Source of the DNA: Candidatus Sericytochromatia bacterium
GTDB lineage: Bacteria; Cyanobacteriota; Sericytochromatia; S15B-MN24; VGJW01
Length of the DNA stretch: 64,000 nt
Direction: 5' to 3'
NCBI GenBank assembly: GCA_035285865.1
Contig: JAYKHS010000028.1
Span: 44,044-108,043 of the forward strand
Within the stretch, counting starts at the first letter, position 1. Every line of letters starts with the position of its first letter. Shown piece by piece: positions 56,760 to 60,198 of this stretch. Below the pieces are notes generated by a model that saw only the letters and a program-made list of their open reading frames with translations, was not told the DNA's origin and made no database searches. Position numbers and translations under genes: made by a program.

Positions 56760-58097
56760 ATGACGATGTCCAGCATTCAGGGCGGGTCGACCTGGACCCC
56801 GAGTTTCGACACGGTGAAGATGACGCCGAATGCGTCGGTGCCCCAGATCAAGGACGAGGCCGCCGTCGTGCCCACGGGTTCCTCCGAGGAGCGTGGTGCT
56901 CAGGAAGAAGTCGTCACGGAACTGCCCACCGGTGGCGTCACCCTCGACCGTCCGACTGTCGAGGGCGATGTCGTGGGGGGCAACATCGTTCCGGACCGTG
57001 GTGGGTTCGTGGACGATCGCAACGCCATCGGCGGCAACCAGCAGGTGGATGGCAGCCGCGTGCCCGATTATGCGACGGCTGTGCAGAATCCCGCCCGCCC
57101 CACCAATCTGGGGGTGGATCAGCTGGGCTCGGACCCGCGTAGCACCGCTCCCGAACTGCCTCGGACGCCCATCAACACGGTCGTGGGCGGCATCGGCCAG
57201 GTGCTGGATCGGGTCAGCAACGGCGAGCGGGGTGACAAGATGGCCGGCGACCTGTCGTCGCTCATCGACAAGTTCAAGGACGATCCCGCCCTGCAGAAGC
57301 TGCTCATGAAGCTGTACGAGATCGCGATGGGCCAGGGTAATCCGTATGACGTCGCCGGGATCATCAAGGAGATCGAAGGTTACCTGAACAGCAAGGCGAA
57401 GATCATGTTCCCGCAGCATGAGCCCTGGGAGGCCATCGTCCAGCGCCCCGACGGTTCCAGCGAGCGCGTTTCCGTCCCGCCTGGCACCACCGAGGCTTCG
57501 TACAACGCCAATCCCTTCCCGCTCAATACGTCCCGTGGCCCGGCGACCGCGGGCGGGGGCACCGGCACCCATGATCCGCTCAAGATCACGCTGGACGGCA
57601 CGGACGCGAAGGTCAACACGACGGACAACAGCCAGATTCGCCTCGACGACGGCCGCGAAGTGACCATGTCGGGCGGTCTCAACGACAACGAGGCCTGGCT
57701 GGTCAAGGACCGCAACGGCGACGGCACGTCCAAGAACAATGGCGTCATCGACGGCAACGAGATCTTCGGCGACCACCTGGGCAAGTTCAAGAACGCCTAT
57801 GACGAACTGGCTCATGAGTACGCCGCCGAGCTCAAGACGGACGAGCAGGGCCGCAAGTACATCGATCTTGCGGACCCGAACTCGGTCGCGGCCAAGGAAC
57901 TCAAGCTGATGGACAAGGCCGGCAACTACATCCACGCCGCGGACAAGCTGCAGAAGCTCTACGTGTCGTGGGACGAGGTGAACATCCAGGCTGGCGACGG
58001 CCAAACCTCGCTGCGTCAGCAGGCCCTTGTCCAGTACAACGATGGCAAGGTGGCGAAGTCGGCCGACCAGTGGTTCGGCGAGAAGCAGGCCGCCTGA
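56760..58097 (+). CDS. acidic Gly/Asp/Asn/Thr-rich protein without signal peptide, unknown function
   Basis: 445 aa. GAGGAG RBS 8 nt upstream. Balanced codon usage. Asp/Asn/Gly-rich loops (e.g. DRNGDGTSKNNGVIDGNE) suggest possible Ca-binding. The opposite-strand 990-aa ORF is compositionally antisense. Confidence 0.6.
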   Translation: MTMSSIQGGSTWTPSFDTVKMTPNASVPQIKDEAAVVPTGSSEERGAQEEVVTELPTGGVTLDRPTVEGDVVGGNIVPDRGGFVDDRNAIGGNQQVDGSRVPDYATAVQNPARPTNLGVDQLGSDPRSTAPELPRTPINTVVGGIGQVLDRVSNGERGDKMAGDLSSLIDKFKDDPALQKLLMKLYEIAMGQGNPYDVAGIIKEIEGYLNSKAKIMFPQHEPWEAIVQRPDGSSERVSVPPGTTEASYNANPFPLNTSRGPATAGGGTGTHDPLKITLDGTDAKVNTTDNSQIRLDDGREVTMSGGLNDNEAWLVKDRNGDGTSKNNGVIDGNEIFGDHLGKFKNAYDELAHEYAAELKTDEQGRKYIDLADPNSVAAKELKLMDKAGNYIHAADKLQKLYVSWDEVNIQAGDGQTSLRQQALVQYNDGKVAKSADQWFGEKQAA

Positions 58098-58184
58098 GTC
58101 GCTGGTGACGGGGGGCGTTCCGCTCGTGGGCGGGACGTCCCCCGTTGTTTGGTCCATTCCTGCCGCGGGAACGCTGAAGTCATC

Positions 58185-59129
58185 ATGACTGCTGCATTGT
58201 CCCGGCCTCTCAGTCGTCTGGCCCTGGCCTTGGCCGTGACGACGATGCCTCTGCCGGTTCTGGCGGCCGGTCTCGAAAGCGATGCCTCCGACCTGCATCG
58301 AGAGGTCTTGGTTCGCCTCGCGGACCAGCTGATCGGGCTGGGTTACGTGCAGTCCGGCGAACGGGTCTGGTGGGAACCGGAGCACGCGGGCTCAACGGAT
58401 TCGGACGCCGATATCCTGCGTGCCATGTTGGCGCGCGCCCTGATGATGCGCGGCGTGGTGCTGGTCGACCGGGAGCCGGATGCCCAGGTGCGCCTCGAGG
58501 CGCGCATGCTCCGTGGACCCGGGGAGGTCGTCTATCGGCCCGAGCTTGTCGAGGGGCGTCCGGGACCCAGCTACACGGTGACGCACCGCCTCGTGGTCCG
58601 CTCCGTCGAGTCGGGCTCGAAGCAGGTGCGTGGGGCGGATGTCCTGGTCGTTCAACTTCAGCCTTTTGCCCCGATTGAGGTTCTTGCGCCCGCAGGGGCA
58701 CCGGGCGCACAGCGACCCGGGGTGCCGCACCCGGTCCGGGAGCTCCAGGGGGTGGGGCTTGCAGTGTCCAATCTGTCGGGTTCCGGCTTCTCCTATCGGC
58801 GCTGGACCGCATCCGGGCTTGGCTATCAGATATCGGGCTTTCCCTATGTCAATGGCCCGGATACGTTCTTCAACGCGGGCGGACAGGTGATGCAGTCCTT
58901 CTTCGAAGCTCCGTGGGGCCGAGGATACGGGCTTGGCTCGGCCGGTGCCGGATTCGGCAGTGTCGCGGATCGCTGGTTCGGCGGCACGGCATGGAACCTC
59001 AGTGTCGGAGGCGGGCTCGATCTGCGCCTTGCCGGCAACCTGGTGCTGTGCGCGCAACTCGCCTACAGCATCTCTGCGGGAAACCGCGTCGGTCCCGGCG
59101 TGGGTGCCGGAGCCTACATCGAGTTCTGA
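58185..59129 (+). CDS. outer membrane protein, paralog 1 (N-terminal periplasmic domain + C-terminal small beta-barrel ending in Phe)
   Basis: Signal peptide (LALALAVTTMPLPVLAAG). Shared block LSGSGFSYRRW...G.PY..G..FFNAGGQVMQSFFE. C-terminal GAGAYIEF. Confidence 0.55.
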   Translation: MTAALSRPLSRLALALAVTTMPLPVLAAGLESDASDLHREVLVRLADQLIGLGYVQSGERVWWEPEHAGSTDSDADILRAMLARALMMRGVVLVDREPDAQVRLEARMLRGPGEVVYRPELVEGRPGPSYTVTHRLVVRSVESGSKQVRGADVLVVQLQPFAPIEVLAPAGAPGAQRPGVPHPVRELQGVGLAVSNLSGSGFSYRRWTASGLGYQISGFPYVNGPDTFFNAGGQVMQSFFEAPWGRGYGLGSAGAGFGSVADRWFGGTAWNLSVGGGLDLRLAGNLVLCAQLAYSISAGNRVGPGVGAGAYIEF

Positions 59130-59157
59130 TGAGCCTCTTGAACGGGTGGAACGAGCG

Positions 59158-60198
59158 ATGCGCTTAGAGCAGTTTCTGACCGGATGCATGGCCGCTCCTT
59201 GCCTTGCGATGGCCTTGGGCGCCGTGGCTGTCGCGGCCCCGCCACCCGATGCCACGACGTTCCATCGCGTCAACATGGAGGATGTGGCAGACCGTCTGCT
59301 GGGAGGGGAGCAGCCTTGGCTCAGGAAGGGGGAGCGTGTGTGGCTGTCGGATTCGGCCTCGCTTCGTACCGCGCGGGATAACGATGCACGGGCTTTGAAG
59401 CACATGTTGATGGCAGCGCTCGCGCGTCGCGGGATTGTGTTCACGGCCTCCGAGGAGCGTGCCGATGTGATGCTGGCTCTGTCCTTCCCGGATGTGCAAG
59501 GGGAGAATCTGTTCTTCCGGCAGGAGTTGCTGGGTGTCCGGCCGGGTCCGTCCTGGCAACTTCGTGATCGCTTGACCGTCCGTGCGGTCGACCGGGCTAC
59601 CGGGCGTGTCCGGGGCGAAGACTACCTTGTCTCCGAGTACATGCCGTTCGGGGGCGGGACTGCCGTGCCTGGGTCCGAGGCTTCCGGAACCGCTAGTCCT
59701 TCCGTGCCGGACCTTGGCTCGGTCCAGGCCGAGCTGACAGGCTACGGACTGTCTGTCTCGTGGCTTTCGGGATCGGGCTTTGCCTGGCGGCGCTGGTTGT
59801 CGGACGGCTGGGGCTGGCAGTTGGCGGGCATCCCCTACAGCGATGGCACGTACTACTTCCACAATGCCGGGGGGCAGGTGATGCGCCAGCTGTTCGAGGG
59901 GCGGCCCGGACGACTCTATCTGCTCGGGGCCGTCGGTGCGGCCTATGGGACAACCGGTCCCACCGGCTGGGATCAGTTGTCCGATGACGGGAGCACCTAC
60001 AACCGTCAGCCAACCTTGCTCTGGAACCTCAGCGCCGGACTCGGGGCCGACCTTCGTCTGAGTCCAAACTTTGTGGTCGCGCTCGGGGCGGGCTACAGCA
60101 TGAGCCCCCGGGCCAGCATCGACGCCAGCTACCGTGTCCGGACGGAAAGCGTGGGGGTCACGCCGGCATTCTCCGCAGGGACGTTCCTCGAGTTCTGA
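59158..60198 (+). CDS. outer membrane protein, paralog 2
   Basis: Signal peptide (CLAMALGAVAVAAP). Same conserved blocks as paralog 1 (GERVWL, LSGSGFAWRRW, HNAGGQVMRQLFE). C-terminal SAGTFLEF. Confidence 0.55.
   Translation: MRLEQFLTGCMAAPCLAMALGAVAVAAPPPDATTFHRVNMEDVADRLLGGEQPWLRKGERVWLSDSASLRTARDNDARALKHMLMAALARRGIVFTASEERADVMLALSFPDVQGENLFFRQELLGVRPGPSWQLRDRLTVRAVDRATGRVRGEDYLVSEYMPFGGGTAVPGSEASGTASPSVPDLGSVQAELTGYGLSVSWLSGSGFAWRRWLSDGWGWQLAGIPYSDGTYYFHNAGGQVMRQLFEGRPGRLYLLGAVGAAYGTTGPTGWDQLSDDGSTYNRQPTLLWNLSAGLGADLRLSPNFVVALGAGYSMSPRASIDASYRVRTESVGVTPAFSAGTFLEF

Follow-up and report, generated by a model that had tools for sequence, protein, structure and literature searches.

In the 64,000 bp stretch of DNA analysed here (the window; positions 44,044 to 108,043 of the forward strand of contig JAYKHS010000028.1, assembly GCA_035285865.1, from a Candidatus Sericytochromatia bacterium), three co-oriented genes, here called A, B and C, fill positions 56760 to 60198 of the forward strand. 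The C-terminal 173 residues of the gene A product are very probably a divergent homologue of the SPM (self-processing module) found in the RTX protein FrpC of Neisseria meningitidis, and structural modelling makes it highly likely that B and C encode 8-stranded outer membrane proteins (OMPs). Our overall reading, held with moderate confidence, is that A is a minimal SPM protein free of RTX repeats, that B and C are tandem outer membrane anchors, and that they are found together in one lineage alone. For A, the homology, the fold, and the conservation of an Asp-Pro junction and of the equivalents of FrpC residues D478 and D579 are in hand; its cleavage, linkage to other proteins, extracytoplasmic location and export we infer by analogy.

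The SPM-like domain comprises residues 273–445 of A (57576-58094, forward strand), forms the C-terminus of the protein, and is recognised by profile, profile-profile and fold matches. When a profile of the A family was compared with the PDB sequences by hmmsearch, its sole matches were 6SJW and 6SJX, the N. meningitidis FrpC SPM (E = 7.5e-4), and the match spans chain residues 1–165, starting at the Pro of Asp-Pro. Profile-profile alignment of the A family with the FrpC SPM by hhalign gives a probability of 94.9% (E = 4e-8), with Asp-Pro aligned on Asp-Pro. The AlphaFold2 (AF2) model of A, in which residues 273–445 are mostly beta, is of moderate quality (predicted local distance difference test score, pLDDT, 61 overall and 58–92 in the SPM), and a Foldseek search of the PDB with it returns 6sjx (E = 9e-7, TM(target) 0.65) and 6sjw (E = 5e-6, TM 0.61); the next match is at E = 0.34, and nothing further lies under E = 0.3. 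A preliminary description of this region, made from the letters and their open reading frames (ORFs), had reckoned a match to a characterised family as evidence against its reading, and for A these hmmsearch, hhalign and Foldseek matches supply such a family. The domain itself is already catalogued, as Pfam family PF26745 ('SPM') exists and is the precomputed annotation of the A relative P0016 and of three genes that adjoin the A paralogue P0015. Our scans of A, B and C against Pfam and NCBIfam gave no match (for B and C none at E ≤ 1), and neither did a Pfam scan of the A relatives including P0016; the Pfam copy used evidently does not report PF26745.

Gene A (56760-58097, forward strand) is an ORF of 445 aa that encodes an acidic, stand-alone SPM protein. 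A GAGGAG ribosome-binding site at 56754-56759, read directly, lies 0 nt before the ATG at 56760 and 6 nt before a second ATG at 56766 (MSSIQ...), which is the start position of the orthologues P0005 and P0006; because of the proper 6-nt spacing and these orthologue starts, the product probably begins at 56766 and has 443 aa. These 443 residues have an isoelectric point of 4.7 and include 40 Asp, 26 Asn, 49 Gly and 28 Thr; 10 lysines are in the fragment N-terminal to the SPM and 16 in the SPM itself, and the EF-hand-like loops DRNGDGTSKNNG and DEQGRKYIDLAD are present. The G+C content at third codon positions is 0.86, typical for real genes of this window (overall G+C about 0.67). No hydrophobic stretch that could act as a signal peptide is found at the N-terminus, and no RTX GGxGxD motif in the sequence. 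An upstream extension that might hide a signal peptide was considered and rejected, there being just 26 in-frame codons upstream. The ribosome-binding site, the acidic composition rich in D, N, G and T, the missing signal peptide and the reality of the Asp/Asn/Gly loops are all as the preliminary description gave them.

The layout of the A protein is a disordered N-terminus, a cargo domain of about 130 residues, a Gly-rich linker, Asp272-Pro273 and the terminal 173-residue SPM. Residues 1–142 (56760-57185, forward strand) are a disordered Gly/Pro/Asp-rich region whose pLDDT is <35 throughout. Residues 143–272 (57186-57575, forward strand), the "cargo" domain, consist of four helices, a small beta unit and the Gly-rich linker that ends at Asp272; in the AF2 model the helices occupy residues 145–211 and the strands 214–262, with pLDDT 67–87. 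This domain gave no match in Foldseek against the PDB, nor in Pfam or NCBIfam. The same order of protein of interest, Asp-Pro and SPM is found in the engineered binder-SPM fusions known as NeissLock (PMC7846742, PMC12538545). Those are engineered and use the SPM of FrpC or FrpA, whereas A is a natural gene, known from sequence alone, with a much more divergent SPM.

The nearest genomic loci are in metagenome-assembled genomes (MAGs) of Sericytochromatia and of 'Ca. Tanganyikabacteria', a freshwater clade inside Sericytochromatia (PMC8245535). Orthologues of A, B and C were each found in further Sericytochromatia MAGs, so the three are real genes and not chance ORFs. Comparison of the window proteins with all fetched loci by tblastn gives two clades, clade I (the window, L013, L014 and L015) and clade II (L001, L005 and L011), which together make up seven syntenic loci. 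A search of 5.8 billion clustered proteins found 12 homologues of A, all of them metagenomic or from Sericytochromatia MAGs. In the resulting alignment of 13 sequences the A family has three zones, a variable N-terminus (residues 1–142 are not alignable between the clade I and clade II orthologues), a conserved middle that corresponds to the cargo domain and is kept in both clades, and a highly conserved C-terminal block, about 175 residues long, whose first residue is an invariant Pro that follows an Asp.

Residues of A were mapped onto the catalytic residues of FrpC defined by Kuban et al. (PMC7078468). In the FrpC SPM, D478 and D579 coordinate calcium at the scissile bond and position that bond, the D579 side chain is required for processing, W451 and W519 form a stabilising, pi-stacking Trp pair, and there are four EF-hand-like calcium sites (PMC7078468). 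The predicted scissile bond of A, Asp272-Pro273 (codons at 57573-57578, forward strand), is aligned to FrpC D414-P415 by both hmmsearch and hhalign. The Pro273 equivalent is invariant, and the Asp272 equivalent is present in 12 of the 13 A-family sequences, in both clades and down to 42% identity. A residues D338 and D436 are the equivalents of FrpC D478 and D579, respectively; both are invariant in the family, the latter followed by an invariant Gln-Trp. EF-hand II is kept as well (D361..D372 of A, FrpC D499..D510). The two domains are alike in length (about 170 residues from Asp-Pro), in fold, in their EF-hand-like loops and in the scissile-site Asp, and as judged from its sequence A is a homologue in which the heart of the cleavage site is preserved.

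Other features of the domain weigh against an SPM that works like that of FrpC. This A protein has an Arg at ligand position 5 of EF-hand II, its EF-hand I is present but has a 5-residue insertion, its first, incomplete calcium site is TLDGTD versus DLDGDG in FrpC, EF-hand III is missing, and G306 and L381 stand where FrpC has the W451/W519 pair. With a sequence this divergent, cleavage activity cannot be assumed. A also departs in architecture, as well as in several of these stabilising features, from the RTX "clip-and-link" subclass: the FrpC host protein is an RTX protein with an internal SPM, whereas A is small (443 aa), lacks RTX nonapeptide repeats and any evident C-terminal signal for a type I secretion system (T1SS), and carries its SPM at the extreme C-terminus. 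On the other side, Asp-Pro is kept down to 42% identity in the A family versus Ser-Pro in relatives of other architectures, which suggests selection on the Asp. By analogy with FrpC, the balance tips towards A being a protein that does cleave itself.

The best surviving alternative, a possible but clearly less probable one, is that the SPM-like domain of A is a non-cleaving, calcium-dependent folding or binding module and that A is an intact calcium-binding protein. This would fit the loss of the Trp pair and of one EF-hand and the alteration of the other calcium sites. It would also fit the close subfamily relatives P0016 and those at L003 and L016, in which Ser-Pro replaces Asp-Pro at the junction; these proteins cannot form an aspartic anhydride, and the SPM fold is therefore used without cleavage elsewhere. 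It accords poorly with an Asp-Pro kept in all but one of the A-family sequences, with the invariance of the two Asp residues that position the scissile bond in FrpC, and with the arrangement of cargo, Gly-linker, Asp-Pro and terminal SPM, which is the layout reported to work in engineered SPM fusions (PMC7846742).

The relatives in other architectures are of interest in their own right. Locus L016 (Vampirovibrionaceae MAG JBGUGD010000015.1) has at 2701-10699 three tandem paralogues of 801–932 aa with a prepilin-type leader (GFTLSEN) and, 227–242 residues before the C-terminus, an SPM-like domain of A's subfamily that has Ser-Pro in place of Asp-Pro; they look like pilin-like proteins with a non-cleaving SPM. 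Locus L003, from the same sample as L001, has at 7831-10914 and beyond a cluster of Sec-signal proteins annotated as PF26745 near the A paralogue P0015. Two of these were translated (513 and 508 aa) and have a Ser-Pro junction and no RTX repeats; the third runs off the end of the locus. The cluster suggests that SPM-like proteins have expanded in number in that lineage. Since relatives bear Sec signal peptides (L003) or prepilin leaders (L016), the SPM-like family is used outside the cytoplasm.

If A does self-cleave, its course may be pictured as follows. By analogy with FrpC and ApxIVA, the SPM would be unfolded at cytoplasmic calcium levels; on entry of A into a calcium-rich compartment, the periplasm or the outside, it would fold and strain the Asp-Pro bond. 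Asp272 would then attack its own carbonyl, releasing the SPM and leaving a fragment of residues 1–272 with a C-terminal aspartic anhydride. Hydrolysis of the anhydride would simply release or mature the fragment; otherwise the anhydride could be joined, through an isopeptide bond, to a lysine close by, either of a second A molecule or of an envelope protein. Because of the 10 + 16 lysines of A, cross-linking of A to itself would be at least as plausible as its linkage to B or C.

Genes B (58185-59129, forward strand, 314 aa from its ATG; taken mechanically, the ORF starts with the TTG at 58149) and C (59158-60198, forward strand, 346 aa) are separated by a 28-nt spacer, and their products are 36% identical end to end (BLASTP, E = 1e-55). 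By inspection, both N-termini have the n-, h- and c-regions of a Sec signal peptide and an Ala-x-Ala site; a candidate lipobox in C (LTGC, residues 7–10) was rejected, being too near the N-terminus and not conserved in orthologues. Their shared motifs are GERVW and RRG(V/I) (N-domain) and LSGSGF.(Y/W)RRW and NAGGQVM (C-domain). Both proteins also end in Phe, a residue that is terminal in 7 of 8 close members of the family (the eighth has an aberrant C-terminal tail), with Phe or Trp in distant members. The AF2 model of B, built from 8 sequences (pLDDT 68 overall), has a signal peptide (residues ~1–29), an alpha/beta domain of about 120 residues (~34–157), a low-confidence linker (158–184) and a closed barrel of eight antiparallel strands (187–313, pLDDT 75–87). 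C has the architecture of B, with two of its extracellular loops longer. The best Foldseek matches of the B model in the PDB are all 8-stranded barrels, namely Ail, OmpA-TM, OprF-N, OmpX, OmpW, NspA, PagL and OprH, at E = 4e-5 to ~1e-2 and TM(target) up to 0.60. With an even number of barrel strands, the N-domain is predicted to be periplasmic. The paralogy, signal-peptide-like N-termini, shared motif blocks and terminal Phe of the preliminary description were thus confirmed. Its duplicated small-barrel OMP with a periplasmic N-domain is likewise supported by the model, in which a barrel and not a purely soluble fold was found.

A HMMER profile search of 1.84 billion representatives finds 138 relatives of B and C at E ≤ 1e-3. 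Most match the barrel part alone, some being stand-alone proteins of about 170 aa, and the full architecture occurs in a handful (P0021, P0023, P0024, P0025 and P0031). The few that are named are all "hypothetical protein", one of them from Bdellovibrionales, and protein B itself is 100% identical to NCBI VKO64_11590. The family signature is SGSG.(S/T)YR(R/H)W, G.G.Q....P, N.G.Q.M and a terminal Phe or Trp. Curated family models give at most sub-threshold OMP_b-brl or DUF2715 matches to the relatives, and a B/C profile had no significant match among the PDB sequences. The C-terminal 130 residues and terminal aromatic residue resemble the barrels of the OMP_b-brl clan and of OmpX, Ail, NspA, OmpW, PagL and the OmpA/OprF N-domains, with the domain order of OmpA reversed, as in B and C the periplasmic domain is N-terminal and the barrel C-terminal. 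The OMP family of B and C is unnamed; its sequence signature is clear and its structure ordinary. On their modelled structure, they are structural or anchoring envelope proteins and not a secretion pore.

The preliminary description took A and the B/C pair for parts of one system, and their association proves to be loose. The clade I gene order is MFS, SRPBCC, MotB, MotA and TPR genes, then the divergent A-B-C, then a convergent ABC-2 permease and ATPase, a gene for a small lytic transglycosylase and one for a CsgG-like OMP. Clade II keeps MotB-MotA-TPR, the divergent A, and the ABC-2, ATPase and transglycosylase genes, without B or C between A and the ABC genes. All three clade II loci (L001, L005 and L011) thus have A but neither B nor C. 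In clade II that slot holds, on the strand opposite to A, a cassette of two lipoproteins that are 60% identical to one another and a small lipoprotein (L001 9298-11908; L005 9376-14961, where it is tandemly duplicated; L011 9314-11727). These lipoproteins have no Pfam match, and the 336-aa one of L001 has no match among PDB sequences; kinship of B and C with the clade II lipoprotein was rejected, as hhalign found no similarity. Conversely, B/C relatives occur without A at L006, L008 and L009. The nearest full-length relative, P0021, shares its sample with L001, lies on a contig whose coverage matches, and stands alone in an unrelated neighbourhood; P0024 and P0156 are also alone in unrelated contexts. 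Across loci A is 75–90% identical by tblastn, B 61–65% and C 57–61%, A being the more constrained.

A terminator-like hairpin lies directly after the A stop codon (58107-58146, forward strand), with a perfect GC-rich stem of 18 bp followed by the U-rich UGUUUGGU; its predicted folding energy is -44.4 kcal/mol (z = -3.0), and a consensus scan also flagged 58128-58140. Perfect GC-rich hairpins of 11–18 bp are found directly 3' of the A stop codon in 7 of 7 syntenic loci, conserved in position and divergent in sequence. They are probably conserved intrinsic terminators, and A is probably its own transcription unit; with this hairpin after A, B and C would need read-through or a promoter of their own. 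A scan of 56400-60400 for the sigma-70 consensus found no promoter. Both clades keep a TTAA(G/A)CTTA motif upstream of A (in the window at ~56664-56680, about 90 nt 5' of the A start), in otherwise divergent intergenic DNA that A shares with the TPR-MotAB operon; candidates for its role are a -10-like box (TAAGCT or TAAACT) and a regulator site.

The different occupant of the clade II slot, the solitary B/C relatives, the hairpin, the difference in constraint and the paucity of lysines in B and C together indicate that B and C are not obligate partners of A. Two observations count against independence: four genomes retain the order A-B-C, with A as low as 75% identical, and the slot beside A holds duplicated envelope-anchored proteins in both clades. 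The latter arrangement is reminiscent of frpD-frpC. We consider a dedicated partnership of A with B and C unlikely, and their link to A to be at most accessory and lineage-specific.

This bears on a second alternative, in which B and C in clade I, and the paired lipoproteins in clade II, are FrpD-like docking or acceptor partners through which clipped A would become covalently attached to the envelope. FrpC is co-encoded in Neisseria with FrpD, its outer membrane lipoprotein partner, to which clipped FrpC is tethered (frpDC operon), and the likeness lies in an envelope-anchored protein encoded beside the SPM protein; the duplicated envelope proteins always found in the slot and the retained A-B-C order agree with it. 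Unlike FrpD, B and C are barrel-anchored, and their globular domain precedes an even-stranded barrel and should face the periplasm rather than the surface. The partner genes differ by clade, and in PDB profile searches neither B/C nor the clade II lipoprotein resembled FrpD, or another protein of solved structure, in sequence. B has 1 lysine and C has 2, none of them conserved, making both poor isopeptide acceptors. The isolated P0021 (which shares sample and coverage with a clade II locus), P0024 and P0156, the strong hairpin between A and B, and the opposite-strand position of the lipoprotein genes also speak against such a tether, which we regard as doubtful.

The sole neighbour of A that is kept in both clades on its upstream side is an operon of TPR (55445-56512), MotA (54546-55394) and MotB (53706-54542) genes, all on the reverse strand, with which A is divergently paired in 7 of 7 syntenic loci. 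They were identified in Pfam as TPR, MotA_ExbB, and MotB_plug plus OmpA, respectively. Against NCBIfam, the top-scoring families for MotA and MotB are all those of flagellar stators, with scores that stay under the equivalog cut-offs, as one would expect in so distant a phylum. Farther away in the window, the 15976-17274 and 17326-18474 region (forward strand) has a lone FlhB gene (E = 4e-112 to Pfam Bac_export_2; 342 bits to NCBIfam flhB, whose cut-off is 349), which lies between an integrase/Xer-like gene (14970-16043, reverse strand) and a TPR protein gene, with no other flagellar export genes adjacent. Its presence makes a flagellar type III export apparatus probable in this organism.

Downstream, the conserved context consists of the ABC-2 permease (60215-61015, reverse strand), the ABC ATPase (61012-61911, reverse strand) and the small lytic transglycosylase (61948-62496, forward strand), all identified by Pfam. 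The CsgG-like-domain OMP (62526-63992, reverse strand, 488 aa) is found downstream in all clade I genomes; it has a signal peptide and a barrel-like C-terminus ending in FRF, with a short PF03783 match (residues 79–131, 27 bits), no similarity to B/C by hhalign and no match among PDB sequences. The ATPase is ABC-2/DrrA/GldA-like and not a type I secretion ABC protein, and the annotated part of the window showed neither HlyD nor TolC genes. Two points weigh against an exported, calcium-triggered A: no export route is identifiable for a protein without a signal peptide, RTX repeats or nearby T1SS genes, and an A that stays in the cytoplasm would rarely meet enough calcium. The stator and FlhB genes give, from sequence context, the sole hint at a possible exit route for a signal-less protein with a 140-residue disordered N-terminus.

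Many flagellar export substrates have no signal peptide and a long disordered N-terminus, and a third alternative is that A is such a substrate, or an accessory protein, exported by the flagellar type III apparatus and acting at or near the motor. Besides the features of A itself, the invariable pairing with TPR-MotA-MotB, the stator matches, FlhB in the window and the small lytic transglycosylase conserved nearby would agree with this. The case is one of synteny. A has no similarity to flagellar families in Pfam or NCBIfam, the A paralogue P0015 and the relative P0016 are in unrelated contexts, and no sigma-28-type promoter is recognisable by eye upstream of A. We think such a role quite improbable.

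The weakest alternative, which corresponds to the export component proposed in the preliminary description, is that B and C form an outer membrane export channel for A; the adjacency and common orientation of the three genes in clade I and A's want of a classical signal peptide would suit it, but the predicted barrel of 8 strands leaves no lumen for a polypeptide and matches OmpX/Ail/OmpA-class anchors alone, and the B/C family occurs without A and A without the B/C family, so we give this almost no credence. Barrels of that class are membrane anchors without a protein-conducting lumen, whereas known protein-conducting outer membrane channels are barrels of 16 strands or more, or large oligomers. 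Compared with the export channels TpsB/Omp85, ushers, CsgG and secretins, B and C have neither a large barrel nor obligate co-occurrence with a cargo.

Parts of these readings could be joined into a single scheme, in which A is a minimal clip-and-link protein outside the RTX/T1SS setting that leaves the cell by a non-classical exit, possibly flagellar type III, and undergoes calcium-triggered covalent welding to the envelope or to itself, with B/C or the lipoproteins as lineage-specific docking partners. In its entirety this scheme is rather improbable.

Several other regions of the window are recorded here for completeness. At 50003-51877 (reverse strand) a prepilin-type pilin or pseudopilin gene (N_methyl; GspG/PilA-like N-terminus) lies beside the gene for a 433-aa protein with a weak OmpA-domain match, and both genes are kept upstream of the locus in L013 and L015. 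Four consecutive genes at 38553-44514 (reverse strand; 353, 470, 997 and 137 aa) have no Pfam match at E ≤ 1e-3. At 32785-34458 (forward strand) there is a 557-aa protein with DUF2949, DUF4388 (PatA_N-like) and C39-like cysteine peptidase domains.

In a literature search for "self-processing module" and "clip-and-link", the SPM was found described just as a part of large RTX exoproteins from pathogenic proteobacteria or as a tool for protein engineering; neither an RTX-free, signal-less protein with a terminal SPM nor a linkage of an SPM to flagellar stator genes was found described there. The host of FrpC is a pathogen, whereas that of A is a free-living freshwater, non-photosynthetic relative of the cyanobacteria. 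A conserved A protein would show that the SPM is an evolutionary unit in its own right and has a wider biological role, in this case among free-living Sericytochromatia of fresh water. For mechanistic studies and for engineering it would offer a natural SPM that is both compact and very divergent, one that tests whether the Trp pair, the third EF-hand and the like are dispensable features of FrpC. It also raises the question of how a signal-less SPM protein exits the cell, and why its gene is locked beside flagellar stator genes. B and C add an unnamed OMP family that combines a periplasmic domain with an 8-stranded barrel. If the joined scheme were true, it would represent a T1SS-independent system of covalent surface or periplasmic attachment in non-photosynthetic relatives of the cyanobacteria.

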